Shown piece by piece: positions 1,384-50,491 of a DNA stretch of 64,000 nucleotides. Within the stretch, counting starts at the first letter, position 1; each line of letters opens with the position of its first letter. The position numbers and the translations under genes are program-made. The stretch comes from Nodularia sp. (in: cyanobacteria) (GTDB lineage Bacteria; Cyanobacteriota; Cyanobacteriia; Cyanobacteriales; Nostocaceae): the NCBI GenBank assembly GCA_007692755.1, contig REBL01000110.1, positions 8,527-72,526 on the forward strand. Direction: 5' to 3'. The notes under the pieces are model-generated. The model was not told the DNA's origin. It saw nothing but the letters and a program-made list of their open reading frames with translations, and made no database searches.

Positions 1384-2109
1384 ATGTCTCATTACCAAAT
1401 GAACAATGAATCGAAAGTTGTAGACAGTTGTCCAGGTAAATTCTTAACGCCTTTTCAATTGAGGCTTTTGCAGAAAGGTCTACAAAAAAATCTACCTGAT
1501 TCCTATCGTCAGCGCATTGAAATTATGCTACTAGCAGACCAGGGGAAATCTCAAACAGCAATTTGTAAAACTTTAGGTTGTTGTCCAGCAACAGTCAGAC
1601 ATTGGACGCATATAGCCCGTACTGGTATGGCGCATCAATGGCAAGATTGTCCCATTGGTCGCCCGAAAGCAGTCAACGAGGAATACTTGGAACGGTTAAA
1701 AGAACTGGTTTTAAATAGTCCTCGCGATTACGGCTATGCTTTTCGCCGCTGGACAGCCAACTGGCTTCAAAAACATTTGGCTAAAGAATTTGGGATTGAA
1801 GTGAGCGATCGCCATATCAAGCGACTGCTTAAACAAATGGGATTATCTACGCGACCAAAAACCAATAACCAGCCAGAAGCAGGATCTGAAAATACGAAAA
1901 GTTCCAGCATATTGATTCACGACCTGAAATCCGACAACATCCCCGAACATATCGGATTTCTGCCTATTCAATTCGCAAAACTAGGTATGGAGTCAGAAAC
2001 TTATGGTGCAAAATCTATCCGATCCTGTGGTTTTCTTACAACAGTTGAACCATGCATTAGGTCATTCACTGGGCGAAGCGGAATTTCAGCGCTACTACCA
2101 ACAATTTAA
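1384..2109 (+). CDS. Helix-turn-helix protein resembling the DNA-binding N-terminus of IS630/Tc1-type transposases (no DDE domain); possible cluster regulator
   Basis: The HTH is LLADQGKSQTAICKTLGCCPATVRHW. A second winged-helix segment is RRWTANWLQKHLAKEFGIEVSDRHIKRLLKQMGLS. No catalytic domain follows. The last 107 nt overlap the exporter ORF in another frame, so the real C-terminus is uncertain. Confidence 0.55.
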   Translation: MSHYQMNNESKVVDSCPGKFLTPFQLRLLQKGLQKNLPDSYRQRIEIMLLADQGKSQTAICKTLGCCPATVRHWTHIARTGMAHQWQDCPIGRPKAVNEEYLERLKELVLNSPRDYGYAFRRWTANWLQKHLAKEFGIEVSDRHIKRLLKQMGLSTRPKTNNQPEAGSENTKSSSILIHDLKSDNIPEHIGFLPIQFAKLGMESETYGAKSIRSCGFLTTVEPCIRSFTGRSGISALLPTI

Positions 2110-4723
2110 ATTTCTCAGCCCGAAAGTCGGAAAGTTTTGGCAAGGAGAAGATACAGAAGCTGGAGTATATATTGCGATCGCTGGCAAAGTCAGGTTGTTA
2201 AATGATCAGGGAGAGCTAATTACCACTTTGGGATCTGGAGAGTCTTTTGGGGAATTTACCTTATTCCCAGAGGCTAACTTCCAACCCTATGGGGCTAGAG
2301 CAAGTGTTAATTTACAACTATGCTTTATTCCCGCCGCAGTTTTATCGGCCTTGATGATTAAATATCCTTCAATTAAAGAGCATTTACTAGCTAAGGCAAA
2401 TGCCAATAATTCGCTGCTGGTGGGTTCCGATCAATCACCTCAACACAATAAAACCGAAATTCCCTCAGCACCAGTCATACCAGTTACAGAACCTCAGCTA
2501 GACAAAAAACTTAGCAAAGCTTACTTTCCCAGTCCTAACCAGCGAGTTGGACATTTATTACAACGAACAATTCGCCGTTACCCATTTTTTAACCAACAAA
2601 GTGCATCAGATTGTGGTGCAGCTTGTTTAGTCATGGTGTCTCGTTATTGGGGTAAACGCTTTAGTGTGAATCGCTTACGGGATATCGCTAATGTTGACCG
2701 CAATGGTGCATCTTTGCGTGGTTTATCCACAGCAGCAGAAAGTATTGGGTTTAGCACACGACCAGTAAAAGCCAGCCTAGATCAGTTAGCCAAGCAAAAA
2801 CTACCAGCCATTGTTCACTGGGAAGGCAAACATTACATTGTGGTTTATGAAATTACCCAGAAATCTGTGATTGTCGCCGACCCAGCAATTGGTCAACGGA
2901 CTCTGAGTCATGCTGAATTTAAAGCAAATTGGACTGGCTATACACTGCTGCTGCAACCCACAGCCTTTTTAAAAGATACCAAAGACACGATAACTCCCTT
3001 CTGGCAATTCTTTGAACTACTCAAGCCTCACAGCTTGGTCATGTTGGAAGTATTTGCCGCATCTGTGTTTATTCAGATATTTGGACTGATTACCCCTTTA
3101 TTCACTCAGTTAATTTTAGATAGGGTAGTAGTACAGCGTTCTGAACTCACCTTATTTGCCGTCGGTTTAGGATTACTAATTTTTAGTTTATTCCGTGTAG
3201 CAATGATGGGTTTGCGGCAATATTTATTAGACCACACGGCTAATAAAATAGATGTGGCATTAATCGTGGCATTTATTCGCCATACTCTGCGCCTACCCCT
3301 CAGTTACTTTGAGTCCCGTTATGTGGGGGATATTACCTCTCGCGTCCAAGAAAATCGCAAAATTCAACGTTTTCTTTCTGGTGAAGCATTATCTATCCTG
3401 CTAGATTTACTCACTGTTTTTATCTATCTAGGATTGATGTTTTGGTATAGCTGGAAAATGGCATTGTTATCCTTAGTAATTGTGCCACCTTTTGTGCTAT
3501 TAGCTTTGGTTGCCACACCTTTTTTACGCAAAATTTCCAGAGAGATTTTTAATGCCTATGCCACTGAAAGTAGTTATCTAATTGAAGCTCTTTCTGGTGT
3601 CAGAACAGTGAAGTCTACGGCAGTAGAACAGACAGTGCGTTGGCATTGGGAAGAGTTATTGCATAAGGAAATTAAAACTGGTTTTTCTGGACAGATTATT
3701 GGTAATCGCCTGCAAATATTTAGTAATTCTATTCACGCAATTGTTACGACTACTTTACTGTGGTTTGGGGCATATCAAGTAATTCACAATCAGTTAACTA
3801 TTGGTCAGTTAGTAGCATTTAATATGCTCTTAGGAAATGTAATTGCACCATTTCAGCGATTAACAGTTTTGTGGAGTGAATTACAAGAAGTCACCATTGC
3901 AGTAGAGCGGATTAATGATGTATTAGATGCAGAACCAGAAGAGGACTTACAGCATCAAGCTAGGCAATCTTTACCACCAATTAAAGGACATATTCACTTT
4001 GACAATGTGACATTCCGCTATCATCAAGAAAGTGATATTAACGTTTTAGAAAACCTCAGTTTTAGGGTTAAACCAGGACAGATGGTGGCTTTAGTCGGTC
4101 GTAGTGGTTCAGGAAAGACAACTATTTCTAAGTTAGCTTTGGGGTTGTATCCGCCTACAGATGGCAAAGTCTTAATTGATGGACAAGATATTACTAGCCT
4201 TTCCTTACGTTCCTTACGGGAACAAGTTGGGGTAGTTGACCAAGATACTTTTCTATTTGGCGGCACAATTCGAGAGAATATTAGCTTAGGATATCCTGGG
4301 GCAAAATTAGAAGAAATTATTGAAGCCGCCACATTAGCGGGTGCTGATGAGTTTATCAAAAAAATGCCTATGGGCTATGAAAGTCAAATCGGTGAAGGTG
4401 GGGGAATGTTGTCTGGTGGACAACGACAAAGAATTGCGATCGCGAGAGCATTATTAGGCAATCCTCAATTGTTAATTTTAGATGAGGCTACTTCCCATTT
4501 AGACGCTGAATCAGAGCGAATTATTCAGAGTAATTTAAATATCATCCTCAAGGGAAGAACCACATTAGTAATTGCTCATCGTCTCTCAACTGTACGTAAT
4601 GCAGATTTAATCTTAGTGCTGGATCGAGGTGTGCTAATCGAGAGTGGTACTCACGAAGAGTTAATGGCTAAACGGGGACATTATTTTTATCTGAATCACC
4701 AGCAATTAGATAACGCAGCCTAA
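2003..4723 (+). CDS. Bacteriocin/RiPP exporter: cyclic-nucleotide-binding domain + C39 peptidase + ABC transporter (TMD + NBD)
   Basis: N-terminal cNMP fold (GESFGEFTLF ... GARASV). C39 catalytic Cys (QQSASDCGAACLVMVSRYWG) and His (GKHYIVVYE). Multi-helix TMD. Walker A GRSGSGKTT, signature LSGGQRQRIAIARAL, Walker B LLILDEATS, H-loop IAHRLST. Confidence 0.9.
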   Translation: MVQNLSDPVVFLQQLNHALGHSLGEAEFQRYYQQFKFLSPKVGKFWQGEDTEAGVYIAIAGKVRLLNDQGELITTLGSGESFGEFTLFPEANFQPYGARASVNLQLCFIPAAVLSALMIKYPSIKEHLLAKANANNSLLVGSDQSPQHNKTEIPSAPVIPVTEPQLDKKLSKAYFPSPNQRVGHLLQRTIRRYPFFNQQSASDCGAACLVMVSRYWGKRFSVNRLRDIANVDRNGASLRGLSTAAESIGFSTRPVKASLDQLAKQKLPAIVHWEGKHYIVVYEITQKSVIVADPAIGQRTLSHAEFKANWTGYTLLLQPTAFLKDTKDTITPFWQFFELLKPHSLVMLEVFAASVFIQIFGLITPLFTQLILDRVVVQRSELTLFAVGLGLLIFSLFRVAMMGLRQYLLDHTANKIDVALIVAFIRHTLRLPLSYFESRYVGDITSRVQENRKIQRFLSGEALSILLDLLTVFIYLGLMFWYSWKMALLSLVIVPPFVLLALVATPFLRKISREIFNAYATESSYLIEALSGVRTVKSTAVEQTVRWHWEELLHKEIKTGFSGQIIGNRLQIFSNSIHAIVTTTLLWFGAYQVIHNQLTIGQLVAFNMLLGNVIAPFQRLTVLWSELQEVTIAVERINDVLDAEPEEDLQHQARQSLPPIKGHIHFDNVTFRYHQESDINVLENLSFRVKPGQMVALVGRSGSGKTTISKLALGLYPPTDGKVLIDGQDITSLSLRSLREQVGVVDQDTFLFGGTIRENISLGYPGAKLEEIIEAATLAGADEFIKKMPMGYESQIGEGGGMLSGGQRQRIAIARALLGNPQLLILDEATSHLDAESERIIQSNLNIILKGRTTLVIAHRLSTVRNADLILVLDRGVLIESGTHEELMAKRGHYFYLNHQQLDNAA

Positions 4724-4774: not shown

Positions 4775-6355
4775 ATGACAGATACATTAAATGGACAAGT
4801 AAAAAACCAACTTCATGAAGATGGAATCTATCAGGAAGTTTTAACACCTCAAAATCCAGCTATTTCTAAACCAGAACTTAATCAGGAAACGAGAACATCT
4901 CAGACATCAGCTATAGCCATCTCAACTGATGATTGGTCTCATGTTACCAAAGATTTGCTTGATAGCTTACCACAAGTTTGGACAAGAGGATTACTATACT
5001 TTTTAATTATTTTTGTAGCGATTATTTTACCTTGGGCAATGTTTTCGCGCGTAGATGAAACAGGTGTAGCTAGAGGCAGATTAGAACCCCAAGGTAAGAC
5101 GGTGAGACTGGATGCTCCTGTTGCTGGAACTGTTGCCGAAATTCAAGTTAAAGAGGGTGATATAGTTAAGAATGGACAGATTTTGTTAGTATTGGAATCT
5201 GAATTAGTCCAAGCCGAGTTACGACAGGTAAAAGACAGGTTAGAAGGGCAATTAAATAGGCGATCGCAGTTAAATTTATTACAGAGCCAGTTAATTGTAG
5301 CTTTAGCCACTCAAGAACAACAAAATCAATCTCAAGAGTTAGAAAAACAATCTCAAATAGACCAAGCCAGACAGAACTTGAATGCTATTAGAAGTTCATC
5401 TAATTTACAAAAAGAAGAAAAATTATCTCAGGTCAATCAAGCACAGCAAACAGTTGAATATAGTCAAACTGCTAACAACTTAATAGCAAGTAGTTTAGCC
5501 AGTACCCAACGAGAAGTTAACCGCTACCGTCAACTTTGGGAAGAAGAAGTAATTCCAGAAATTACAGTTATAGAAAAACAAGATATTGCTAAAGAACAGC
5601 AAAGATTGTATGAACAGAGTAAATCAGATATTCGGCAAGCTAAGTTAAGGTTAGCAGAACAACAGAGTAGTTATGAACGGACTCTTAGTCAATTTAATGC
5701 CGATATTGAACAGGCTAAATTACGGCTTAATGAACAAGAAAATAGTTATCAGACAGTAACTCATGTGGGTAAACTTGCGGTACTCAAAACTCAGGAACAA
5801 TTAAAAAATATAGATACAGAAATTTCCACACTCAATGCAGAAATTGCACAAACTCAAAGCCAAATTCAGTCTTTAGAGTTTCAAATAAGTCAACGAGTTT
5901 TAAAAGCAAACGTGAATGGTACTGTATTTCAGTTACCAATTGAAAAAGCTGGTTCTGTAGTTCAGCCAGGCACAATGATTGCCGAAATTGCCCCAATAGA
6001 TTCGCCTTTAATTATTAGAGCGCAAATGGCTACAACTGAGAGCGGTTCTTTACAAAAAGGATTACCCGTTAAGCTCAAATTCGATGCTTATCCTTTCCAA
6101 GATTATGGAGTTATTGCCGGCGAATTACTAGAAATTTCTCCGACGACAACAGAAATAGATACACCTAGCGGAAGAGTAGCGGCGTATAACTTAGAAATTG
6201 CGATGAATCAGCATTGTATTCCTAGTCGTGATCAATGTATTCCCTTAAATCCTGGGGATACTGCAACTGCTGAAGTGATAGTGCGTCAGCGTCGCATTAT
6301 TGATTTTATCCTTGATCCATTTAAGAAATTACAACAAGGAGGAGTGAAATTATAA
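4775..6355 (+). CDS. HlyD-family periplasmic adaptor / secretion protein partnered with the C39 exporter
   Basis: N-terminal TM helix (LLYFLIIFVAIILPWAMF), lipoyl-like hairpin (VAEIQVKEGDIVKNGQILLVLE), a long Q/E-rich coiled coil and a C-terminal barrel. It starts 51 nt after the exporter stop. Confidence 0.85.
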   Translation: MTDTLNGQVKNQLHEDGIYQEVLTPQNPAISKPELNQETRTSQTSAIAISTDDWSHVTKDLLDSLPQVWTRGLLYFLIIFVAIILPWAMFSRVDETGVARGRLEPQGKTVRLDAPVAGTVAEIQVKEGDIVKNGQILLVLESELVQAELRQVKDRLEGQLNRRSQLNLLQSQLIVALATQEQQNQSQELEKQSQIDQARQNLNAIRSSSNLQKEEKLSQVNQAQQTVEYSQTANNLIASSLASTQREVNRYRQLWEEEVIPEITVIEKQDIAKEQQRLYEQSKSDIRQAKLRLAEQQSSYERTLSQFNADIEQAKLRLNEQENSYQTVTHVGKLAVLKTQEQLKNIDTEISTLNAEIAQTQSQIQSLEFQISQRVLKANVNGTVFQLPIEKAGSVVQPGTMIAEIAPIDSPLIIRAQMATTESGSLQKGLPVKLKFDAYPFQDYGVIAGELLEISPTTTEIDTPSGRVAAYNLEIAMNQHCIPSRDQCIPLNPGDTATAEVIVRQRRIIDFILDPFKKLQQGGVKL

Positions 6356-6440
6356 ATATTCTCATAGTTACTTAACGCTTTTAAGCACCAACTAAGCGAA
6401 AAACTTGTTTAGCATTACGTTAATTTATTGGAAACAACTC

Positions 6441-7187
6441 ATGTCAGAAAATGTAACTATTACCACTGAAGATATTCTGCATCAAATCAAATTATCTTGC
6501 AAAATTCCCGATATAGTCAAGGAAAGTATTACTCGCAAAATTATTAAAAATGCTGCCATTGAGGCAGATATAAAGGTTGAGACAGAAGAACTTCAAAGAT
6601 CAGCAGACCAAATTCGGCTAATCAACAAACTCAATAGTGCTGATGATACCTGGAAATGGTTGGAAAAAAATGGTTTGTCCCTAGATGACTTTGAAGAAAT
6701 AGTCTACGATACTGTGATTTCTGGAAAGTTAGCTGCTCATCTGATGGCGGATAAGGTCGAAGCTTATTTTTATGAGAATCAACTTGATTATTTTGGTGTG
6801 GTGATTTACGAAGTTGTACTAGATAATGAGGATTTAGCGCTAGAACTTTTCTATGCGATTCAAGAAGGTGAAATGAGCTTCTATGATGTTGCTCACAAAT
6901 ATATTCAAGATACAGAGTTGCGGCGTAAAGGAGGATATTTAGGTAGAGTGAATCGTCAGGATTTAAGACCAGAAATTTCTGCTGCTGTTTTTGCAGCTAC
7001 ACCACCACAGCTTCTCAAACCGATATTAACTTCTAAAGGAGTTCATTTGATTTTGGTGGAAGAGATAATTCCAGCAGAATTAAATAACTTATTACGTTTT
7101 CAAATCTTGTCAGATTTGTTTGGTGAATGGCTGAAGCCACAAATTGAAGATGTAGAATATTACACTAACCTGAAGCTAAATAACTAA
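6441..7187 (+). CDS. Parvulin-type peptidyl-prolyl isomerase with SurA-N-like helical domain (copy 1)
   Basis: C-terminal rotamase signature RRKGGYLGRVNRQDL ... TSKGVHLILVEE. I place the start at ATG 6441 rather than the TTG at 6405 used by the ORF track. Confidence 0.7.
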   Translation: MSENVTITTEDILHQIKLSCKIPDIVKESITRKIIKNAAIEADIKVETEELQRSADQIRLINKLNSADDTWKWLEKNGLSLDDFEEIVYDTVISGKLAAHLMADKVEAYFYENQLDYFGVVIYEVVLDNEDLALELFYAIQEGEMSFYDVAHKYIQDTELRRKGGYLGRVNRQDLRPEISAAVFAATPPQLLKPILTSKGVHLILVEEIIPAELNNLLRFQILSDLFGEWLKPQIEDVEYYTNLKLNN

Positions 7188-7771
7188 GCAGGTGGGCGTA
7201 AATAAGTTTAACTATAGAACTATTATTGATTTTTGTTGGCATAGCCTAGCTAAAGCTCTGCTTTAAGCGTTCGCGTAGCGTCTTGGAGAGGAGAGGGTTG
7301 TCATTTGTCCTTTGTCATTGCTAATGATTTGAGGATTTTTGACTTTCCTTGACATAATTTTATTTATTCCTACTGACTATCTTGTAGGTGTTTTGTTCTC
7401 ATAAATTTTTGCTTTTTATAATTGTTCCAACTCTGTGCGCTTTTTTAAATGATATTTAAATTTTGAAGACATTCGCCACAAAACTTGTAGATTTTTATAT
7501 CTAAAATCAGGACAAAAATGATGCACTTAATGTATGACTATTTCATTTATTCATGTAATTGCTATGCGGTTATATGAATATTTTAGAGCAACCCGCTACT
7601 AAATTAGGCTTGTGTATACGAATTTAGTAAATGAAATAACTGTAACAATTATATCCATCTATTAGATTCAAAATGCTTGTTTAATAGAATTTGATTCTAG
7701 ATAATAAGAATGAAATTGAACAATAAATTGTTTAATTCCAAGTAAAAGCTGAAAAATCCAGGAGTTTCAAA

Positions 7772-7978
7772 ATGGCTTCCATTACAGTTTCTAATCTTTA
7801 TCCACTTGGCTCTGATCTATTCATGGATTCTGAGAGCTTTATGGATGCATTGAATGATAACGAACTTGCTGAAATCAATGGTGGAGTAACACCAGCAGTG
7901 ATTACCACAATTGCTACCAAGTGGTTTATTGGTGCTGCTGTTGGTGGTGCTATCGTTGGTAGCATCATTTATTGGTAA
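7772..7978 (+). CDS. Double-glycine-leader precursor peptide A1 (38-aa leader, 30-aa Cys-free hydrophobic core)
   Basis: AGGAG lies 8 nt upstream of the ATG. The leader ...GSDLFMDSESFMDALNDNELAEINGG ends in the canonical L-x-x-x-E-L-x-x-I-x-GG. The core is VTPAVITTIATKWFIGAAVGGAIVGSIIYW, with G-x-x-x-G-type motifs, 4 Thr, 1 Ser and no Cys. Confidence 0.8.
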   Translation: MASITVSNLYPLGSDLFMDSESFMDALNDNELAEINGGVTPAVITTIATKWFIGAAVGGAIVGSIIYW

Positions 7979-8054
7979 TAGCAATAGCAATAGCTTCCCT
8001 GGCGAACTATCCCTCCACTCATATCAATTCTACTGAACATAACGGAGAACAATC

Positions 8055-8270
8055 ATGTCAACAATTAATATCCAAGATATCAAAGTAGCCGGTTCTGATC
8101 TATTTTTTGACGAAGAAACCTATCTAAATGAGCTTTCTCATGATGAGATAGGGGCTGCTAAAGGTGGTATCACTCCCACTGTTGCTGGAACTATTGCACT
8201 CAGCAGTGCTTTTGTACTCAGCTACAACCTGAGCAAAATTGGTACTGAATTGAAGAACAAATTTTTCTAA
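8055..8270 (+). CDS. Double-glycine-leader precursor peptide A2 (38-aa leader, 33-aa Cys-free core)
   Basis: GGAGAA RBS. The leader ...GSDLFFDEETYLNELSHDEIGAAKGG shares the GSDLF-x-D-x-E box and exact length with A1. The core ITPTVAGTIALSSAFVLSYNLSKIGTELKNKFF shares the N-terminal (V/I)TP(A/T)V motif. Confidence 0.8.
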   Translation: MSTINIQDIKVAGSDLFFDEETYLNELSHDEIGAAKGGITPTVAGTIALSSAFVLSYNLSKIGTELKNKFF

Positions 8271-8455
8271 AAAATATGTGCTTGAGTAGACAATAATACA
8301 CAAAATTAATTGTTTACTTAGGTTAAATTTTTAAACAAAGGATGTGAGAGTTACAATTACCTTAACAATACTAGGTTGACTAACTCTCAATTCCTTACTT
8401 CTTCAGAATCAAACACTGTGGTGTTTATCATTAGCCCTCACTTACAAAGGCAATT

Positions 8456-8710
8456 ATGAACTTCAATGATTTTCCAACTGTTATGTCTATAATTGCTTTA
8501 CTAATAGGTATAACATTTTTAATTTTGTCTGATTACATAGCGGCTGGCGTGTGGCTATGTTATGGTTTAGCGACATTATTAGTTAATAAAGTTGGTTCAT
8601 CTAATATGGATAATTTTAGCCGTATAGATGTAATAATTGCTTGGGCTACAATTGTCAGTTTTATTAGTTTATTGTTGTTTCAGCTACACAGGGATTTCGT
8701 TGCTAGATAG
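8456..8710 (+). CDS. Small integral membrane protein (candidate immunity protein)
   Basis: 84 aa dominated by hydrophobic helices (VMSIIALLIGITFLILSDYIAAGVWLCYGLATLLV; IIAWATIVSFISLLLFQL). It sits directly after the two precursor genes, and its stop is 10 nt before the kinase ATG. Confidence 0.5.
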   Translation: MNFNDFPTVMSIIALLIGITFLILSDYIAAGVWLCYGLATLLVNKVGSSNMDNFSRIDVIIAWATIVSFISLLLFQLHRDFVAR

Positions 8711-8720
8711 AGAATAACTG

Positions 8721-9899
8721 ATGATATTTGCATTAAGCTCTCAAAATGTTTTTGATTATTTAGTTACACACCAGATATGTCAACTAGAAGAACAACCGAG
8801 TAGTATTGAGATTAAATTTGCTAAAAACTTTAATTTGCTATTGCAGTTGAAAAATGGCTGTCAGCTTTTAGTTAAACAAGAGCGCCACACCCTGGATGGA
8901 AAAACTGCTGGTGAATTTCTCAATGAATGGCGAACTCAAGAGTTATTACGAAAATTTTCAGAATTTGAGGGCATTAAGTCATCATTTCCAGAAGTGCTGT
9001 ATTTTAATGCCATTGATTCAATTATTGTTTTCAATTACCTGGCCGATTATCGTGACTTAAACGATTTTCATATCAAGACAAATATTTTCCCGGCTGAGGT
9101 CGCTACCTTAATTGGAGGCATATTAGCAGAAGTACATCGCACCACAATTAATCATCGAAAATATCAGGAATTTTTGGTTGAGCAACTTAATGGTGAAGCA
9201 AATTTACAGGTTTCCGACTTTACGCGTGGGTTGGAGCGTGTTGAACCTGAAATATTTGGCTTGGTTCCCGCAGATGCTCTGAAATTTTTTGCACTTTATC
9301 AGCGCTATGACAGTCTTGGTCAAGCATTAACAGAACTTTCTGGCGCGTTTACACCTTGCTGTTTGACTCACAATGACTTGAAGTTAAATAACATTTTACT
9401 GCACAATGACTGGGAGCAATTCTTGGGTAGTGCAGAACCAGCTAGGGCTGGGATAATTCGGATCATCGATTGGGAACGCTCCGGTTGGGGAGATCCTGCT
9501 TATGATTTGGGGACTATTATTGCTAGTTACCTGCAAATTTGGCTCAGTAGCTTGGTAATTAGCCAATCTCTAGATATTCAAGCAGCATTACGCCTGGCCA
9601 TAGTACCTTTAGAATATCTACAACCTTCAATAACAGCTTTGATCAAAGCTTATTTTAGTAAATTCCCGGAAATTTTAGAGCATCGCCCAGATTTTTTAAA
9701 ACGTACAATTCAATTTTCAGGACTTGCCTTGATTCAACAAATTCAGGCAATGATTCAATACCAAAAATCCTTTGGTAATGCGGGTATTTTTATGCTGCAA
9801 GTTGCCAAAAGTTTGCTATGTCGTCCAGAGCAATCGATATCGACAGTGTTTGGAATGACAGAGTTAGAGTTGATTAACCTCAGCTACTCTCAAGTCTGA
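8721..9899 (+). CDS. APH / eukaryotic-like protein-kinase-fold phosphotransferase
   Basis: The catalytic loop HNDLKLNNILL matches the H-x-D-L-K-x-x-N type. The metal-binding segment is IRIIDWERSGWGDPAYDLG. The size and layout fit the aminoglycoside-phosphotransferase-family kinases used in class V lanthipeptide clusters. Confidence 0.7.
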   Translation: MIFALSSQNVFDYLVTHQICQLEEQPSSIEIKFAKNFNLLLQLKNGCQLLVKQERHTLDGKTAGEFLNEWRTQELLRKFSEFEGIKSSFPEVLYFNAIDSIIVFNYLADYRDLNDFHIKTNIFPAEVATLIGGILAEVHRTTINHRKYQEFLVEQLNGEANLQVSDFTRGLERVEPEIFGLVPADALKFFALYQRYDSLGQALTELSGAFTPCCLTHNDLKLNNILLHNDWEQFLGSAEPARAGIIRIIDWERSGWGDPAYDLGTIIASYLQIWLSSLVISQSLDIQAALRLAIVPLEYLQPSITALIKAYFSKFPEILEHRPDFLKRTIQFSGLALIQQIQAMIQYQKSFGNAGIFMLQVAKSLLCRPEQSISTVFGMTELELINLSYSQV

Positions 9900-9924
9900 G
9901 TTTCGTTGTTTAACCAAGATTTTT

Positions 9925-11052
9925 ATGCAATTACTGGATTCTCTTCAAAATCAATTACCAGTTAATTTCTCCAATAATGTGCTGGATGCAATCCGAGACA
10001 TTGCGCGCAATGTTCAGTTTCAGTCTAATTTCTGTGTCAGCCATCCAGCATACAAACCTTTGGATTTACCAGAAGAGGTGGTGACTCGATTTCAAAAAGT
10101 ACCTTTAGACCTGCAAAATAAGTATCTAAGTTTGCAATTACGCAGCTTTATTTATGGAATTTATTATAACGGTTCCTTGTGGAATACTCTCGCTTTGGGT
10201 AAAGATTCAAAAGATTTGCTTCTACAACAAAATCTAGAGAACAATACTCTATTGGGAGTAGATTGGGAATTTTATGCCCGACTGCATGAAAGCAATAGTG
10301 GACAAGGTTACTTTGATCCTGGTTGGCAGGTGTTGAAGTTAGAAATTGATGGTGATCTAGTGGTCACGAAGGGTGGATTAAAACTTCATATTAACCGCGA
10401 TCGCCATCTGCAACTCGAAGAACAATCTGCTAACCTGGGAGACATTGTGGCCATCCGCCTCCCACGAAATTTGATTCAAAATGGCTTTTATGTAGCTGTT
10501 GGTAATGCAGGGACAAATAGCCATAAAAAGGCAGAAAATCAGACTCAATTGGTGCGCGTTTACTTCAATTTAGCTCCTGAAGGCGCACCTGCTGTGATGA
10601 AAAATTTAACGCAACACCTCAATGCAGCGTCAATCTTCTTTTCTTTTAAACTTCTCTACAATCCCGCCGACTATACCCGCTTTGATTCAGGTGTTCTCTA
10701 TTTTGAGCGCAGCCATTATGAAACTATGCGCCAAGTCATACAAACAGTGTATACCCAAGAGCGATCGCACTTCCAAAGAGAAATACCTCTATTTACCAAG
10801 TTCCTCGCACCAGGTTTAGGACTAGCCGAAGAACCAAATCATCAGTTTTCTGAACAAGAAAGTTTTGGAATGCATCGGTGTCAAATAGTCAGTAATGGGC
10901 TATTAACAGCGCAGCAATTAGGGGACGAGTCAGAAGATACCAGAATAAACTTGATTCTGGAAGAATTTTCGGCTCTGGGTATTAAGTTAGCACATCCTTA
11001 CTTAAACGCTAATTCGGAAGACATTTATACCCCACTGGACTTATGCGAATAG
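9925..11052 (+). CDS. HopA1-effector-family-like protein (candidate phospho-Ser/Thr lyase)
   Basis: The assignment is by recollection of family features: RVYFNLAPEGAPAVMKNLTQHLN...FSFKLLYNPADYTRFDSGVLYF, about 370 aa, and obligate adjacency to an APH-type kinase. I did not verify it by HMM. The gene is tightly packed between the kinase and the reductase genes. Confidence 0.5.
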   Translation: MQLLDSLQNQLPVNFSNNVLDAIRDIARNVQFQSNFCVSHPAYKPLDLPEEVVTRFQKVPLDLQNKYLSLQLRSFIYGIYYNGSLWNTLALGKDSKDLLLQQNLENNTLLGVDWEFYARLHESNSGQGYFDPGWQVLKLEIDGDLVVTKGGLKLHINRDRHLQLEEQSANLGDIVAIRLPRNLIQNGFYVAVGNAGTNSHKKAENQTQLVRVYFNLAPEGAPAVMKNLTQHLNAASIFFSFKLLYNPADYTRFDSGVLYFERSHYETMRQVIQTVYTQERSHFQREIPLFTKFLAPGLGLAEEPNHQFSEQESFGMHRCQIVSNGLLTAQQLGDESEDTRINLILEEFSALGIKLAHPYLNANSEDIYTPLDLCE

Positions 11053-12056
11053 GCGATTTATCTCAAAAGCCAACAACTGTACTCGGTGAATCAAACCAAT
11101 TAATCGCTAAATTTACCGAGTCAGATATACCTTTTTATCGCCAACTGGGGCGAACTAATTTAAAAGTAAGTTGTCTGGGTTTAGGCGGTGGGGGATCAAT
11201 TTCCAGTGAAGATACCCTTTACGCCTTTGAGCAAGGAATTAATTATTTCTTCTACTCCAGCGATCTGCATCATTTTTTATACAGGTCAATGGCTGATGCT
11301 CTGCGTAAACTCTGCGGACGAGGCTCTTCGGTACGCGAAAAAGTTGTTCTAGCAACAGTCACTTATATTAAAAATCCAGAAATTGTTCTCTCTGCTCTAT
11401 TCGATCAGTTTCAAGAACTGGGTATTGATTACATTGATGTCCTGCATTGGGGTTGGGTAGGAGAAAATGATCACTCAGCTCTGAATAATTGCTTGCAGCT
11501 TTCCCCAGATATCAGAGGTGCAAGTAGCGTTTATCAGCGCACCATTGAAAGAGTATTTGGTGTCTCAGAGCGCCTAAAAAAAATGGGAGCTGTCCGCTAT
11601 GTTGGTGCTTCTTTCCATGACCTCAATTTAGCTCATCAGTGGTTAAATAGCCCTTTGTTAGATGTGGTGATGGTGAGGCATAATGTCGCTCATCGCTCTG
11701 CTCAACATCAAGCCTTTAATTGTTTGAATGTAGCAGATCCACAGCGTCCAGGGATTGTCACATTTAAATCTACAGGCTCTCATACTGGTTCCTTGTGGGA
11801 AGTTCCTCCTAGTTTACCTAGTAATTGCTGGCGACCTAATGTGCCAGATTTATACCGATACTCCTTATCGCAGAATTCTGTTGATGTTTGCCTCATGGGC
11901 TTGCAGCGTCGGGAAGAAATTGATGCTGCGATCGCGGGTGTGCAAAGAGGTAAATTAACTCCTGGTGAGATAGAATACCTCAACTTCTACGGAGATTTAC
12001 ACCGCGATCGCATAAAAATTGGGGATATTCCCCCAGAAAAGTTGATTTACCGATAA
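11043..12056 (+). CDS. Aldo/keto-reductase-like oxidoreductase
   Basis: FYRQLGRTNLKVSCLGLGGG matches the AKR N-terminal Y-x-x-LG-x-T-x-x-x-VS-x-LG-x-G. A (beta/alpha)8-like periodicity follows. The canonical D-T-A..Y catalytic stretch is replaced by GINYFFYSSDLHHFLY, so the tetrad is not confidently identifiable. The ATG overlaps the upstream stop by 10 nt. Confidence 0.55.
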   Translation: MRIGDLSQKPTTVLGESNQLIAKFTESDIPFYRQLGRTNLKVSCLGLGGGGSISSEDTLYAFEQGINYFFYSSDLHHFLYRSMADALRKLCGRGSSVREKVVLATVTYIKNPEIVLSALFDQFQELGIDYIDVLHWGWVGENDHSALNNCLQLSPDIRGASSVYQRTIERVFGVSERLKKMGAVRYVGASFHDLNLAHQWLNSPLLDVVMVRHNVAHRSAQHQAFNCLNVADPQRPGIVTFKSTGSHTGSLWEVPPSLPSNCWRPNVPDLYRYSLSQNSVDVCLMGLQRREEIDAAIAGVQRGKLTPGEIEYLNFYGDLHRDRIKIGDIPPEKLIYR

Positions 12057-12152
12057 ATGAAAGCAACCGCCGATGTGTGGGGTTTACCTACCTCTGGCCG
12101 CAATCTCTAATTTCATTCATCCAAATTGCTCATAATTACAAAGGATAGAGTC

Positions 12153-12890
12153 ATGGTAGAAAGTTTGACAAAACCTTCATCAATTGTCCCAGCCACAGAT
12201 GCAGAAATTTTAGCTTACCTGCGTTATTCTCACAAAATTACTGATATTGCTGCTTTAGTAGAACGAAATACCATAGTTTTACGAGCTTGCGAGAAGTTTA
12301 ATATTATAGTTACCGATGAAGAACTACAAGCAGCCGGAGATACATTTCGTTTAGAACACAAGCTTGTGGGAGCATCAGAAACCTTTAACTGGCTGTCTCA
12401 GCAGCGAATTTCTGTAGAAGATTGGTCTTTAGGCATCAAAATTGACCTTCTTACCAAAAAACTGAAAGAATATCTCTTTGGTATGGAAGTTGACGCTGAT
12501 TACATGAACAACCGCAATGGCTATCGGCGAGTCATGCTATCTCAGATTTTAGTACCTGATTTATCTGATGCCTTAAAAATTGTCCATTTAATTCAAAAAG
12601 AAAATGCTTCTTTTGCAGCCCTAGCTGTAGAATATTCTCAAGGTAAAAAATCTCAAGAAAATGGTGGTTTTGTTGGCTTACATTTGCTAGTAGAATTGAT
12701 GCCAGAAATTGTCCAAGCTCTCACTGATGCAGTAGCAGGAGAAATAATTGGACCAATTTCCAGCCAACTTGGTCATCACATTCTGAGAATTGAAAAATGG
12801 TTCCCTTCTGAACTGACTAATTCAGGTAGGGAAAATATTTTAGAATCTCTTTTCCAAGTTTGGTTACAAAATTTTCGCGCTAATTTTTGA
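12153..12890 (+). CDS. Parvulin-type peptidyl-prolyl isomerase with SurA-N-like domain (copy 2)
   Basis: It has the same architecture as copy 1. The rotamase region is SQENGGFVGLHLLVELMPEIV ... SSQLGHHILRIEK. I place the start at ATG 12153; the track uses the TTG at 12126. Confidence 0.65.
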   Translation: MVESLTKPSSIVPATDAEILAYLRYSHKITDIAALVERNTIVLRACEKFNIIVTDEELQAAGDTFRLEHKLVGASETFNWLSQQRISVEDWSLGIKIDLLTKKLKEYLFGMEVDADYMNNRNGYRRVMLSQILVPDLSDALKIVHLIQKENASFAALAVEYSQGKKSQENGGFVGLHLLVELMPEIVQALTDAVAGEIIGPISSQLGHHILRIEKWFPSELTNSGRENILESLFQVWLQNFRANF

Positions 12891-13211
12891 AATCAGCCAC
12901 TTTTTTAAAGAGTGGAATTTTACTGCCATTTTCTAGCATAAAAATGCCAAAATACGACGTATTTACTTAAAATTCATTTTAAGTGATTTGGCTCATCTTC
13001 TATTCTGTCTAAAGCTTTTTTAGCTCTAAATACAAGTCGTAAATAAGCTAATTGGCTATTCCAAGCTGAACGAGGTAACAGAGGTTCAGGGGAATTTAAC
13101 TCGGCTTGAGTTTGATTGGAGGATGAATCCAAATTACTGTTCATTTCTTTTGTGGACATATTCAGATCAATCAAAAAATTGGTGAACTGGCTTTCAATTA
13201 GAAGCAACTGA

Positions 13212-14456
13212 CTATGGGACTGACTCTGGTTCCTTTTGCCAACTGTCTGACCAATGAACGCGATCGCTTGTAAAATGTAGTGGATCGTTTTCTGGCCAAG
13301 GGGCATCAATCGGTTCTTCAATCAAAGCAAACTCCCCATTATCAAAGGGATTGCCATCGGCTCGACGTTGGAGAAATACTCGTTCTCTCATGCCATTTTT
13401 TTCGTGAGTCAAGGCGCGATGATGACAGTAAGGATTATTCCCGCGCTTGTCAAAAAAGACGTGTGCAGTCCAACTGCAACCACCTCGACACAATTCGGCA
13501 AACTCGCAAGTTTTGCAGAAACCCCAGAGATGATCTGTACCTTGGGGAGTACCAGCACCTAAATTAAACCGCAATTCTTCCGTTTCCTCAATGATGCTTC
13601 GCAAAGAGCGATCGCGGATATTACCACCTGTATAAGCTGAAGTTGGTAATGAAGGACAACCTTTAATCGCCCCATCGGCTTCAATTCCTAAAGCCGAGAG
13701 TCCAGCACTGCATCCCTGCCAAAAAGTCCAAGCATCCCCATCACCTCTTAACAATCGCTCATAGGGGCCGTAGTAACCGATATTATTCCCTGCTTGCAGT
13801 CTGACCCCCTCTTCCTTGGCACGTTTAGCAACACGAGCAATCATCGGATAAACATCCAAGAGTTCGTAAGGTTGCAACAGAATCTCATTATTATCCGCCG
13901 CATTGCCCATCGGTACAGTTAACTGAATCTGCCAAGCAAAAATACCTGCATCCCGGAGATGTTCATATATACTGGGGAATTCTGGTGCAGAAAGGCGATT
14001 GATTTGTGTATTGCAACCAAAAGGAATACCTGCTTGCTTCAGATGACTCATAGTTTTAAAAGCCCATTGCCAAGCACCTTGTTTACCACGGATGCGATCG
14101 TGAGTTGCTTCCAAGCCATCTACAGATACAGAAACTACACCAATACCAGCGGCTTTCATCCGGTGGGCTGTGTCTAAAGTAATTCCATAACCCCCAGTAG
14201 TCATACCACATAGCATTCCCGCTTGGGTAATGGCTTGGGCAATTTCTAACCAATCTGGACGGAGAAACGCTTCACCTCCAATAATAGTTACTTCAGTGAT
14301 GCCAACATCTGCCATTTGTTTAACCATATCCAGGGCTTCTGCTGTGGTCAATTCATTTACCCTAGTTTGTCCAGCACGAGAACCGCAGTGTTGACAAGCA
14401 AGATTGCATTTTAATGTAATTTCCCAAACCGCATAGCTAATTCGGCGATAGGTCAT
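13212..14456 (-). CDS. Radical SAM / SPASM-domain peptide maturase (splicease-like candidate)
   Basis: C-x3-C-x2-C at WEITLKCNLACQHCGSRAG. The C-terminal auxiliary-cluster Cys set is CSAG...GCPSLP...CKTCEFAELCRGGCSWTAH...YCHH. It is the last large gene of an operon containing Nif11-leader precursors. Confidence 0.85.
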   Translation of the reverse strand: MTYRRISYAVWEITLKCNLACQHCGSRAGQTRVNELTTAEALDMVKQMADVGITEVTIIGGEAFLRPDWLEIAQAITQAGMLCGMTTGGYGITLDTAHRMKAAGIGVVSVSVDGLEATHDRIRGKQGAWQWAFKTMSHLKQAGIPFGCNTQINRLSAPEFPSIYEHLRDAGIFAWQIQLTVPMGNAADNNEILLQPYELLDVYPMIARVAKRAKEEGVRLQAGNNIGYYGPYERLLRGDGDAWTFWQGCSAGLSALGIEADGAIKGCPSLPTSAYTGGNIRDRSLRSIIEETEELRFNLGAGTPQGTDHLWGFCKTCEFAELCRGGCSWTAHVFFDKRGNNPYCHHRALTHEKNGMRERVFLQRRADGNPFDNGEFALIEEPIDAPWPENDPLHFTSDRVHWSDSWQKEPESVP

Positions 14457-14483
14457 AAAAGTTACCTCTAATTAATTTAGATA

Positions 14484-14509
14484 GGGACGAGTTTCATTTC
14501 ATCCGTCCC
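14484..14509 (-). promoter_or_regulatory. Intercistronic stem-loop between the precursor genes and the rSAM gene
   Basis: GGGACG (14484-14489) pairs with CGTCCC (14504-14509) around a 14-nt loop. It lies between the stop of the Nif11 precursor (14525) and the rSAM start (14456). Confidence 0.3.
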
Positions 14510-14524
14510 CAATACTCTAATTTC

Positions 14525-14872
14525 CTAAAATTCAGAGTTTACAACTCCATACAATGGCTGAGGTTGAGGTTCCCACGGCATAGGTGGCCACGTAATTACC
14601 CCATATAGTGGCCGAATTACAGGCTTGCCCAGAAAGCCACCAAAAACAGCTTCTAGTTCTTTTTCACTCAAATCTTGGAGTTCACCTTTATTAGCAGTGG
14701 ATTCCAACAATTGGATGGTATATTCTTCAAACTCTTGTTGTGTAAAATCGTAACCTGCACTTTGAACTACTTGGCTACATTCATCTTTACTTTGCACACC
14801 TTGTATTTGAGTGCGAAAAGTTTCATCATTTGCTAACTGTTCGTAGAAACCTTTGACGTTTTCTAGAGACAT
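14525..14872 (-). CDS. Nif11-type leader precursor peptide N1 (79-aa leader ending GG, 36-aa core with two L-Y-G motifs)
   Basis: The leader MSLENVKGFYEQLANDETFRTQIQGVQSKDECSQVVQSAGYDFTQQEFEEY...LSEKELEAVFGG is the Nif11 leader family. The core is FLGKPVIRPLYGVITWPPMPWEPQPQPLYGVVNSEF. The LYG codons are at 14600-14608 and 14546-14554. Confidence 0.9.
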   Translation of the reverse strand: MSLENVKGFYEQLANDETFRTQIQGVQSKDECSQVVQSAGYDFTQQEFEEYTIQLLESTANKGELQDLSEKELEAVFGGFLGKPVIRPLYGVITWPPMPWEPQPQPLYGVVNSEF

Positions 14873-14896
14873 AGTTTTATCCTCAAAAAGTCACTT

Positions 14897-15226
14897 TTAA
14901 AGAGTATTTCGTGGCAAAAGATTAATTGGTGGCAACCCATACAGTAAGACCATATAAGGTAATATAGATCCCACAAGTGCTGTAGTTGCACCACCAACAA
15001 CTGCTGCTAATTCTTTTTCACTCAAATCTTGGAGTTCACCTTCATTAGCAGTGGATTCCAATAATTGGAGAGTATATTCTTCAAACTCTTCTTGTGTGAA
15101 ATCGTAGCCAGCACTTTTAACTATTTGGCTACATTCATCTTTACTTGTAGCACCTTGAACTTGAGCGCGGAAATGCTCATCTTTTGCTATTGTTTCGTAG
15201 AAAAATTTGACGTGTTCTAAAGACAT
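14897..15226 (-). CDS. Nif11-type leader precursor peptide N2 (79-aa leader ending GG, 30-aa core with one L-Y-G motif)
   Basis: The leader closely matches N1 by eye (MSLEHVKFFYETIAKDEHFRAQVQG...LSEKELAAVVGG). The core ATTALVGSILPYMVLLYGLPPINLLPRNTL is unrelated. The LYG codons are at 14936-14944. Confidence 0.9.
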   Translation of the reverse strand: MSLEHVKFFYETIAKDEHFRAQVQGATSKDECSQIVKSAGYDFTQEEFEEYTLQLLESTANEGELQDLSEKELAAVVGGATTALVGSILPYMVLLYGLPPINLLPRNTL

Positions 15227-15258
15227 ATTCTGCTCCTAAAATAGAATTGTAAATTGGC

Positions 15259-15696
15259 TTATCTAGAAATGGGAGTTGCTACATCTACTATGAGGTCAGA
15301 TGCATTGTAGTTATCTGTAATCACTTGCGGGCAACGCTTACAAGCTGCCTTACCTTCTTGTTGCCACCAACGACAATCTCTGCGTATAGAACAGGGAGGA
15401 AGTTCCTCAGCTACCGCAGGTAATTTCTCTACAACTTGCATTGCGAGACGGCAATCTTGTCCATCAAAATGCTGACAGTTTTTAGTCGCGCAAGGTGAAG
15501 CTGTACGGAAGATTTCGGCAGGTGTAATGGGACTAGCTTTGGCTAATAGTTCACTTGTGACAGGCTGTGGCTGCTTGAGATAAGCTACACGAGGTTCTGC
15601 TACAGTTCCACCGATGACTCCAAAGACAACACTATTTACAGATTCTGGCCTAGCACTGGGACAGAGTGTGGTATTTTCAGTAGGCAAATTTTCCAT
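15259..15696 (-). CDS. Small 8-Cys protein of unknown function (candidate rSAM accessory / PlpY-like partner)
   Basis: 145 aa. The Cys pattern is CATKNCQHFDGQDCRLA ... PPCSIRRDCRWWQQEGKAACKRCPQV. It lies between precursor genes in the same operon as the rSAM enzyme. I recognise no enzymatic motif. Confidence 0.5.
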   Translation of the reverse strand: MENLPTENTTLCPSARPESVNSVVFGVIGGTVAEPRVAYLKQPQPVTSELLAKASPITPAEIFRTASPCATKNCQHFDGQDCRLAMQVVEKLPAVAEELPPCSIRRDCRWWQQEGKAACKRCPQVITDNYNASDLIVDVATPISR

Positions 15697-15996: not shown

Positions 15997-16957
15997 TTTG
16001 AATTTCCTCTTTATTTGGGTTTTATTTTTACCACTAAATATAGTGATAGTAGAACTTTTCAAATTATAGAGGAAAGTCAAATTACTTATCTAGTTAACTA
16101 GAGCTTTCTGGAAGATATAAATAAATCATTTATGTCACTAACATTTATTAAAAATTAAGTGTGGAATTCGTTAATGGCTTAAGCTATAGGACTGCAATTT
16201 GATTCTAGAAAATATACTGAGGCTCCAAAGCCCTATTTAACAAGGTTAAAGCTGAAATCACTCTAGTTTTTCGATACAATTTTGTGCATAAACTAAAACA
16301 TTTATGTCCCAATAAACTTTTTGTTGGATCAGCAATTGCCGCTATTAGTCAACACCTGATAGCATCAAAACCCGGATAAATAATGTTTGTTATGTACCTT
16401 GCTAGGGAAATTTAATATTCTGTTCAAACTGAGAATTAAACAATAAATAATATTTTGTTTTGATAACTTTTAGTCAAAAAGTAGTGGTAAATATTACTAG
16501 ATGAATATACAAAGATTGCCTTAATGAAGGATTTTTCCATAGCGATGTACAATAAAACTAACTGCCAAAGGTTCACCCTTACTTCTAGGATCACAGCGAA
16601 GCCACTTTCACCCAAATTGTTGCATCCTGCGGTAAACCTATATGTATTAGAAGTAGGTGATCAACAGCATACCTGTAGGCAACGGAAAAATTGCGTAAAA
16701 CCTGCCTGAAAAAGAGTTAATCAGCTCCTTGGGGCGTGATATTTGGGAATCTCTACAATCACCACAATTTGAGTTTATTTGCAGCTAGTACCGCTGCGCG
16801 GAAGTCAAAAGTCAAAAAGCTTAACTATATAGGCTTGGCATTGATTTTGGATAGTTGTGCTAATTCCGCTGTGCTGGACTAGGATAACCTATCTGCAAAG
16901 ACGACCTATTGACAATTTACCCAAAAGCGTTTCCAGATTTAAAATCTAGAGGAGTCC

Positions 16958-47633: not shown

Positions 47634-47668
47634 ACGAATTACGAATTACGAACTACGAACTACGAATT
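47634..47668. repeat. STRR-like heptamer array ACGAA(T/C)T x5, the inverse complement of the 47447 array
   Basis: The sequence is ACGAATT ACGAATT ACGAACT ACGAACT ACGAATT. The array abuts the stop codon of the GT4 gene. With 47447-47474 it forms a long split inverted repeat. Confidence 0.85.
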
Positions 47669-48932
47669 ACGCAGTTGTTGTTTCTAGTTTTTTCACATCT
47701 TGAACTATCTCATAAAGCTTTTCTTCAAACTTTTCTGAACACGCCGACCAATCATATTTGAGTATAGAAGGACGAGCCTGTTCAGCCATTTCTGCTTTAA
47801 GTTGAGAATTTTCCAGAATTGCTACCACTTGGTCAGCAAAATCTTGGGGATTATTAGCTTCAGCTAAAAAGCCATTGTAACCAGGAATAACTTGTTCAGC
47901 CGTTGAAGGTGCAACCACAGCCACCAAAGGAGTACCGGAAGCCAAGGCTTCGTTATTTGTCGTGCAGAAATTTTCAGTTGCAGAGGGGTTGACAAATATA
48001 TCTGCACGCGCAAACCAACCTAAAAGTTCTGTACCGTGAGACTCACCCCAAATGGTAATACCAGATTCAAACTGTTTAGACCGCCGACGCAGTTCTTCAT
48101 CTAAAGGTCCACTACCGATAATCACTAAATGAACATCAGGAATTTTGGCAGCAATGAGCGGAAACATATCGATAAGTTGGGTGACATTTTTTTCCGCCGT
48201 AATCCGTCCCACAAATAAGAGCGTTGGTCTGTTGTCGTCGGGAATCGGGTTGTGGATAATATTTCGGGGGTGAAATTTTTCACAATCAATTCCTTGATAA
48301 GGAACGTATTCACCCCGTTGACAATTGAGCTGATTGTACTTCGATAGTTGTGCTTGAGAAGGAAATAAATTCAGATCATAGACCTCAGTAGACTGCTTGA
48401 CTAAAAAGGGAATAATCGGGCGCATCAAATTGAAAATATGATTACCCAAATAATATTGGATGTAGGCAACTATGTCAGTATGGAAAATTGAAATAATTGG
48501 AGTCCCTGTTTTCTGCGCGTATTCAACTCCAATAGGACGACCATAACCTTGCAAGAACATTGAATAGAAACCTCGCATTTGTGGTGCTTCTTCCACTACC
48601 ACAATATCGGGTTGAAATTTTTCTAATAACTTGGTATCACTCCAATGGCGATAGTGTAAGGGTTGCGGTAAAGACTTGTAAAAGATTAGTGGCTTTGTGG
48701 GAAAAGCATAAGCAGAAAAGTTAGGAAAACACTGTAATTCCTCCAGTCCTGGCATAGGACGGGTACCCACATTTTTCGGATACTGGTCGTTGATTTCTGG
48801 ATGGACAAGAAAGACTTCATGCCCTTGTTCTAGTAACCAGTTAACCCTTTGGTGGACTGCAATTGAAACTCCTGTTAAAAAAGGAGCATATAATCCTGTA
48901 AACAAAGCAATGCGAAGTGGTTGCTTGTTCAT
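47667..48932 (-). CDS. Glycosyltransferase family 4 (group 1), HglT-like by position in the hgl island
   Basis: The GT-B C-terminal motifs are FVGRITAEKN and ENFCTTNNEALASGTPLVA (E-x7-E type). It is the terminal gene of the glycolipid gene block. Confidence 0.75.
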   Translation of the reverse strand: MNKQPLRIALFTGLYAPFLTGVSIAVHQRVNWLLEQGHEVFLVHPEINDQYPKNVGTRPMPGLEELQCFPNFSAYAFPTKPLIFYKSLPQPLHYRHWSDTKLLEKFQPDIVVVEEAPQMRGFYSMFLQGYGRPIGVEYAQKTGTPIISIFHTDIVAYIQYYLGNHIFNLMRPIIPFLVKQSTEVYDLNLFPSQAQLSKYNQLNCQRGEYVPYQGIDCEKFHPRNIIHNPIPDDNRPTLLFVGRITAEKNVTQLIDMFPLIAAKIPDVHLVIIGSGPLDEELRRRSKQFESGITIWGESHGTELLGWFARADIFVNPSATENFCTTNNEALASGTPLVAVVAPSTAEQVIPGYNGFLAEANNPQDFADQVVAILENSQLKAEMAEQARPSILKYDWSACSEKFEEKLYEIVQDVKKLETTTA

Positions 48933-49009
48933 AATTTTAGTGTATTTGTGTATTTTAGCTGAAAATAATGCTGTCTTTATCCGTTCTGCTTATTCTGTAA
49001 ACCGCATCT

Positions 49010-50272: not shown

Positions 50273-50316
50273 CTTTAATACCTGCTGTATGATTGACCTT
50301 GAAAGATGAACTAGGG

Positions 50317-50462
50317 CTAGTAGTCTGTCAACTCAAAAATGACGGGTAAATAAATCTTTCAATTTTTCTTCTTTCTTTCCTTCTTTCCTTCTTCCTTTGC
50401 GTTCTTTGTGTCCTTTGTGGTTCCTTCCTTTATCCGTCACAATAAATTTGACAGACTACTAG
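50317..50462. repeat. Nested inverted-repeat (MITE-like) element between the two GT2 paralogs
   Basis: The outer perfect 14-bp IR is CTAGTAGTCTGTCA (50317-30) / TGACAGACTACTAG (50449-62). The inner IR is GACGGGTAAA (50341-50) / TTTATCCGTC (50432-41). The core is a polypyrimidine CTTTCC/TTTGCGT tract related, in inverse orientation, to 56085-56145. Confidence 0.75.
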
Positions 50463-50491
50463 TGGCGTGGCGGTTCTTTGACTGATGTACC

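Follow-up and report, generated by a model that had tools for sequence, protein, structure and literature searches.

Does an operon of Nodularia sp. that combines two Nif11-leader precursor peptides with a radical SAM/SPASM enzyme encode a tyramine-excising spliceotide pathway, and if so, which small protein works with the enzyme? The operon lies on the minus strand of a 64,000-nucleotide stretch of contig REBL01000110.1 (hereafter the window). An earlier, sequence-only reading of positions 13212-15696 had proposed that the enzyme acts as a splicease on the L-Y-G motifs of the precursors, with a 145-amino-acid protein from the same operon as its PlpY-like partner. Following up this proposal, we find that the operon very probably holds a type I, PlpXY-like spliceotide pathway, that the likely partner is a 61-amino-acid protein encoded directly downstream of the enzyme, and that the 145-amino-acid protein belongs with a peptide of its own. 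The operon (~15996 to 12974) is a run of six genes in the same direction with gaps of at most 68 nucleotides: P3, C145 (the 145-amino-acid protein), N2 and N1 (the Nif11-leader precursors), X (the radical SAM/SPASM enzyme) and sY (the small downstream gene). The open reading frames (ORFs) of X, N1, N2 and the 145-amino-acid protein were all found where they had been described. The operon had been said to end with the radical SAM gene, but the conserved sY follows X, and both operon ends, sY and P3, fall outside the interval originally read.

Comparison of X with the NCBIfam collection identified the equivalog model TIGR04103, 'nif11-class peptide radical SAM maturase 3', with a score of 849 bits against a cut-off of 725. 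The next-best family, TIGR03913, reached 423 bits over X residues 8-385, below its cut-off of 592, and the models for PqqE, MftC, SkfB, StsB, WgkB, DynA and PapB gave only 58-101 bits against cut-offs of 265-650. Whether X might fall into another maturase family had been raised as a check on the splicease proposal; the answer is negative, TIGR04103 being the sole model whose cut-off was passed. The InterPro entry IPR026482 is presumably built on this same model. In Pfam, X matches Radical_SAM (3e-23) and SPASM, the latter at its gathering score. The CNLACQHC motif seen earlier supplies the CX3CX2C cysteines (C17/C21/C24), and the Cys-rich C-terminus proved to be a complete seven-Cys SPASM motif (C249, C267, C314, C317, C323, C327 and C344). 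Among solved structures, SkfB and PqqE are the best matches. Relatives of X are encoded in 377 species-level genomes, and the family is unusually conserved: the best 80 of the 377 are 82-96% identical and cover Nostocales, Moorena, Hyella and Xenococcaceae, and the nearest relatives are Nodularia proteins with 96-98% identity. A batch of deposited clusters from PCC strains (AVH79461-AVH79563) shows 88-90% identity to X, consistent with these being the Pasteur-collection plpX homologues mentioned for Morinaka et al. 2018. PlpX itself has been assigned to IPR026482 in a review.

The precursors N1 and N2 match Pfam Nif11 (E 2e-15 and 1e-14, respectively) and NCBIfam TIGR03798, and each has a 79-residue leader with GG at its end. 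These leaders had been called near-identical; they are similar, but with 62 of 79 residues shared (78%) the stronger description does not hold. The core of N1, FLGKPVIRPLYGVITWPPMPWEPQPQPLYGVVNSEF, carries two L-Y-G sites and that of N2, ATTALVGSILPYMVLLYGLPPINLLPRNTL, carries one. Recounting the codons from each ORF returned exactly the L-Y-G positions reported previously (Table 1), and both cores are free of Cys, also as claimed. To this pair we added all ORFs with a Nif11 leader that lie close to X homologues in the 80 loci, giving 134 precursors with 126 distinct cores. All of them carry one to three YG dipeptides (one in 48 distinct cores, two in 71 and three in 7). The presence of YG in 126 of 126 cores compares with a mean of 23 and a maximum of 39 over 1000 shuffles of each core. 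Gly follows directly in 211 of the 276 Tyr residues of these cores, and the consensus around the site is [QR]P[LM]-Y-G-[VA][VI], the rest of the core being hypervariable.

The sites in the window also resemble sequences on which splicing has been validated. PlpXY natively splices MYG and LYG, and the cores of the corresponding splice tags are PIRPLYGLPI (PlpA2) and AVAAMYGVVFP (PlpA3). One N1 site, in the context PVIRPLYGVI, has IRPLYG in common with the PlpA2 tag; the second, QPLYGVV, has YGVV in common with the PlpA3 tag; and the N2 site, VLLYGLPPI, has LYGLP in common with the PlpA2 tag. Because the window sites are L-Y-G and match these validated tags, the products are predicted to carry alpha-keto-beta-amino acids derived from Leu, with two such residues in N1 and a single one in N2. 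What can be seen directly is the gene content, the family to which X is assigned, the conservation of the motif and the likeness to validated substrates. The proposal that X is a splicease acting on the L-Y-G motifs of Nif11 precursors is strongly supported, since TIGR04103 is matched above its cut-off, x-Y-G is universal among the precursors and the sites come close to identity with the PlpA2 and PlpA3 tags.

Two of the homologous loci have layouts of their own. In Hyella patelloides (locus L070, 1560-8521) the operon is expanded, with four P3-type peptides, the 145-amino-acid protein, seven Nif11 precursors, X and sY; each of the seven precursors has a single x-Y-G (PYG, MYG, AYG, TYG, CYG, VYG and VYG). 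Microseira wollei (locus L057) has two X/sY/precursor units within 8 kb and in opposite orientation (406-2598 and 6582-8501).

The small gene sY is found directly after X in 80 of 80 homologous loci. In the window it starts 52 nucleotides past the X stop codon, at an ATG (13159) that we take as the true start of the conserved protein. Its relatives are 48-81 amino acids long, with a variable N-terminal half and a conserved C-terminus, LLPRSAWNSQxAYLRxxFRAKKALDRIEKEAG, which appears helical as read from the sequence rather than computed. Searches of Pfam and the PDB found no match to sY, none of 24 sY sequences matched PqqD even at E<=1 to 10, and NCBIfam and PADLOC scans gave chance-level matches at most. 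According to one paper (PMC5995677), plpX is followed directly by the small, unannotated gene for PlpY; another (PMC12710340) holds that the protein is too small to fold as an RRE, and modelling by the Piel group has Y binding X via an alpha-helical region. Since its downstream position, its size and its conservation in all 80 loci fit these descriptions, sY is likely the PlpY equivalent and would serve as the splicease activator. The longest ORF that holds sY has a TTG start within the 3' end of X, a length of 115 amino acids and an overlap of 110 nucleotides (13212-13321); the tblastn 'conservation' of the overlapping part probably just reflects the conserved X coding sequence, read in another frame.

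C145, by comparison, is a larger protein with eight conserved cysteines. In an alignment of 102 sequences, seven of these Cys never vary and the eighth, C102, is kept in at least 90%; R64 and R105 are likewise invariant, and H76 is almost so. The AlphaFold2 model built on this alignment is of high confidence (predicted local distance difference test (pLDDT) 93.5, predicted TM score 0.86), and a Foldseek search with it found no match in the PDB (best E 2.2, TM <0.2). There is no family for C145 in Pfam, NCBIfam or PADLOC, where matches were at chance level at most, and PqqD/RRE went unmatched by 36 plus 102 homologues at thresholds as loose as E<=1 to 10. Source annotations name it 'nitrogen fixation protein' or 'hypothetical protein'. 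An RRE fold was considered after a model from a shallow alignment (pLDDT 49, its fold search meaningless) hinted at three strands and three helices; it was dropped, as the model with pLDDT 93.5 breaks that order and matches nothing in the PDB. As to what the protein does, metal binding through a pair of four-Cys sites and recognition of a leader helix are guesses. Searched with a profile, 1.84 billion cluster representatives yielded 1083 relatives at E<=1e-3, each representing a 50%-identity cluster, and 723 at E<=1e-10.

In the loci homologous to the window, C145 rarely occurs by itself: a P3-type peptide is encoded directly upstream in 47 of the 48 loci that carry it. The P3 leader of the window ends in ...ANISGG and is followed by the core LVTKFAIAGYFPICPPITLGIIYIPPTITIK. 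The consensus of the P3 leader helix is xEINDLIDDAVNNAVxRRN...SDEEAKNVAGG, and in the cores the unit P(P)I[IT]x-G-[LI][IV][AY] occurs once or twice. The motif xG[LIV][IVL][IVAY] is present in 49 of 66 unique P3 cores, compared with 5.3 in shuffles, and YG is present in just one. This unit formally parallels the splice-site consensus of the Nif11 cores, Tyr being replaced by Ile, Val, Thr or Leu. Scans of P3 against Pfam, NCBIfam and PADLOC yielded matches no better than chance. A similar arrangement was seen in the six distant C145 loci that we read, each homologue lying after one or two small ORFs of 54-112 amino acids (Table 1). The partner peptides there have a similar Ala-rich acidic helix and hydrophobic-Gly-hydrophobic core motifs, and several of these loci adjoin genes for HlyD, a C39-peptidase ABC transporter and an outer-membrane factor (OEP). 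No radical SAM gene was found within the 6-7 kb read in five of the six; in the sixth (L087) one lies ~6.7 kb off, at the edge of the locus.

In the pathway that these genes suggest, sY would activate X, and X would act on the two sites of N1 and the single site of N2. At each L-Y-G a tyramine equivalent (C8H9NO, 135.07 Da) would be excised and the backbone rejoined, after which the nearby C39-peptidase ABC transporter, together with its HlyD partner, would probably cut off the GG leaders and export the cores. The splicing chemistry, the activating role of sY and the choice of this exporter are what we infer. The features of a type I spliceotide system seen here are CX3CX2C together with SPASM, Nif11 leaders with GG, x-Y-G cores and a small downstream gene. 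PlpXY with PlpA2/PlpA3 of Pleurocapsa sp. PCC 7319 (type I, Morinaka et al. 2018) likewise has a radical SAM/SPASM X and a small Y downstream, and its precursors, like those of the window, have Nif11 leaders ending in GG and a P-L-Y-G-[LV] context near PIRPLYGLPI and YGVV. Unlike the Plp system, the window contains no PlpD-type epimerase or NHLP-type precursor anywhere, and its operon begins with P3 and the eight-Cys protein; the likeness is one of gene layout, leaders and tags. PcpXY/PcpA of Pleurocapsa sp. PCC 7327, also type I, is a ternary system of X, Y and A in which Y is required in vitro and mediates X-A binding. PcpA has two splice sites, like N1, but its N-terminal site, compared by description, is MYG rather than the LYG of the window.

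Other systems are related to the operon in part. The type II pairs RhaX/RhaA and RasX/RasA of Rheinheimera carry out the same reaction at x-Y-G (the RasA site is LYG), and their ketoamide products inhibit proteases. They are binary, however, with no Y gene and a leader helix that replaces Y, whereas the window has a separate Y-like gene and Nif11 leaders. TIGR03913, which comes closest among the other NCBIfam families, describes a GDL-motif peptide-associated maturase; the window precursors carry YG, not GDL. MftC, PqqE, SkfB and other SPASM maturases have the radical SAM core and SPASM domain in common with X but differ from it in substrates and chemistry.

Given such relatives, X might instead perform some other Tyr-directed reaction at Y-G, for example crosslinking through a cyclophane or an ether, or a decarboxylation like that of MftC, in which no tyramine is excised. 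Related SPASM enzymes do such chemistry, and MftC, PqqE, WgkB and DynA are detectable homologues of X (61-101 bits). The idea is hard to reconcile with X passing the equivalog cut-off of TIGR04103 only, with window sites that agree, at each residue around Y-G, with validated splice tags of PlpXY, and with the invariant Gly after Tyr, which is the signature of a splicease; we consider it highly improbable. Several points nonetheless weigh against the splicease pathway. Its chemistry at this locus is a prediction from the genes, and according to a 2022 review no native spliceotide end product had by then been isolated from a producer. The equivalence of sY and PlpY (WP_019503879.1) is based on position, size and conservation, with no similarity to PqqD, Pfam or PDB entries, and X is likened to PlpX (WP_019503880.1) by its context and by a family score that presumably bears on IPR026482. 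Pleurocapsa is not among the best 80 loci nor in two top-120 lists of X proteins, and a search for X homologues seeded from Xenococcaceae was filled by proteins >82% identical to the query, none from Pleurocapsa. A scan of the genome collection for the back-translated PlpA2 tag PIRPLYGLPI also found nothing.

The identity of the partner is a separate matter, and here the sequence-only reading, in which C145 is the PlpY-like protein that X needs for splicing, has to be revised. C145 is encoded in the same operon, 32 nucleotides upstream of N2, and of the 62 loci covered in full (5 kb or more to either side of X) 48 have it alongside X. The remaining 14, however, lack C145 and retain X, Y-G precursors and sY. 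Its family follows small peptide genes in the six distant loci, five of them with no radical SAM gene within the 6-7 kb read, and in the loci with X it is nearly always paired with its own peptide, P3. PlpY, moreover, is described as encoded downstream of plpX and as too small for an RRE fold, a description that an eight-Cys protein of 145 amino acids encoded upstream of the precursors misfits and that the 61-amino-acid sY fits. There is very little chance, in our view, that C145 is the splicing partner. A weaker association, in which C145 and P3 share the pathway with X, C145 as an extra maturase or redox partner or P3 as a third, non-Tyr substrate, would account for the tight shared operon in most Nostocales and for the way in which P-I-T-I-G-L-I of P3 formally mirrors the splice site Q-P-L-Y-G-V-V. 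But the two genes are found alone elsewhere and the splicease core is found without them, and described splicing needs Tyr, while YG occurs in just 1 of 66 P3 cores; we regard such sharing as unlikely. Because P3 and C145 are missing from 14 of 62 splicease loci and their counterparts occur in other bacteria, with no neighboring radical SAM gene in 5 of 6 loci read, we conclude that they are a separate two-gene cassette within the operon, not required for splicing. Tentatively, and with the balance close to even, we propose that C145 is the signature protein of an undescribed, widespread peptide-maturation cassette and no splicease accessory, fused in Nostocales into the spliceotide operon. 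Such a cassette would consist of a peptide of ~55-110 amino acids, with an acidic Ala-rich leader helix, usually a GG site and a short core of hydrophobic-Gly-hydrophobic motifs, followed by a protein of ~145 amino acids. If this holds, one Nostocales transcript would yield two unrelated classes of modified peptide.

The locus is thus a further member of the described spliceotide family, unsurprising in itself because that family is named by NCBI annotation and is very common in Nostocales. With it, a family prized for protease-inhibitor pharmacophores and for use in protein engineering gains three predicted ketoamide sites derived from Leu. The pathway had been rightly recognised from raw sequence, with the correction that the likely partner is sY, and for reconstituting Nostocales spliceases the gene to co-express is the unannotated one of 48-81 amino acids downstream of X, not that of the 145-amino-acid protein. 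The uncharacterised part of the operon, and its more novel item, is the cassette of peptide and eight-Cys protein. With >1000 cluster representatives and neither a family model nor a structural relative, this cassette is a possible new system resembling those of RiPPs (peptides made by the ribosome and modified after translation).

Table 1. Features of the spliceotide operon and its surroundings. Positions are those of the window, except in the last six rows, where they refer to the named locus.
Feature	Position	Strand	Description
P3	15742-15996	-	84-aa double-glycine-leader peptide; first gene of operon
C145	15259-15696	-	145-aa protein, eight conserved Cys; 32 nt upstream of N2
N2	14897-15226	-	109-aa Nif11-leader precursor, one L-Y-G
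N2 L-Y-G site	14936-14944	-	L95-Y96-G97, codons counted from ORF
N1	14525-14872	-	115-aa Nif11-leader precursor, two L-Y-G
N1 L-Y-G site 1	14600-14608	-	L89-Y90-G91, codons counted from ORF
N1 L-Y-G site 2	14546-14554	-	L107-Y108-G109, codons counted from ORF
X	13212-14456	-	414-aa radical SAM/SPASM enzyme, predicted tyramine splicease
sY	12974-13159	-	61-aa ORF directly downstream of X; likely PlpY equivalent
Promoter-like site	16063-16092	-	TAGATA-18-TATAAT, 10/12 matches; upstream of P3
cNMP-binding C39-peptidase ABC transporter (PCAT)	2003-4723	+	Pfam Peptidase_C39, ABC_membrane, ABC_tran, cNMP_binding (N-terminal)
HlyD-family membrane-fusion protein, PCAT partner	4775-6355	+	Pfam HlyD_3
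PpiC-like protein, first	6405-7187	+	31% identical to PpiC-like protein at 12126-12890
Double-glycine bacteriocin-like peptides, Thr-rich cores	7772-7978, 8055-8270	+	
84-aa ORF with hydrophobic stretches	8456-8710	+	
LxmK-like kinase	8721-9899	+	
HopA1-family protein	9925-11052	+	
Aldo/keto reductase	11043-12056	+	
PpiC-like protein, second	12126-12890	+	weak TIGR04500 match
Distant cassette, L081	5741-6423		
Distant cassette, L084	4858-6696		
Distant cassette, L086	5666-6423		
Distant cassette, L087	6253-7456		
Distant cassette, L088	6796-7426		
Distant cassette, L089	6552-7435		

The promoter-like site upstream of P3 is a possible promoter of the operon, as suggested by its match to the consensus; the count of such sites in the region is not above that in shuffles. 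No second X homologue or further Nif11 precursor was found across the whole window, and none of the other large ORFs scanned matched Radical_SAM. A plus-strand cluster converges on the spliceotide operon. Its PCAT is a candidate protease and exporter for N1, N2 and P3, a role suggested by their GG leaders. The genes at 7772-12890 resemble a lanthipeptide set of class V type that has precursors of its own, and a set of this kind lies beside the spliceotide operon, in either orientation, in 33 of the 62 loci. The kinase and HopA1-family protein were also considered as tailoring enzymes for P3; this was set aside, given the two GG-leader peptides of their own just upstream and their presence in only those 33 loci. 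Elsewhere in the window, 47667-51751 on the minus strand encodes three tandem glycosyltransferases of ~420 amino acids, one of them GT4-type and the other two GT2-type paralogues; they have no connection with the operon.

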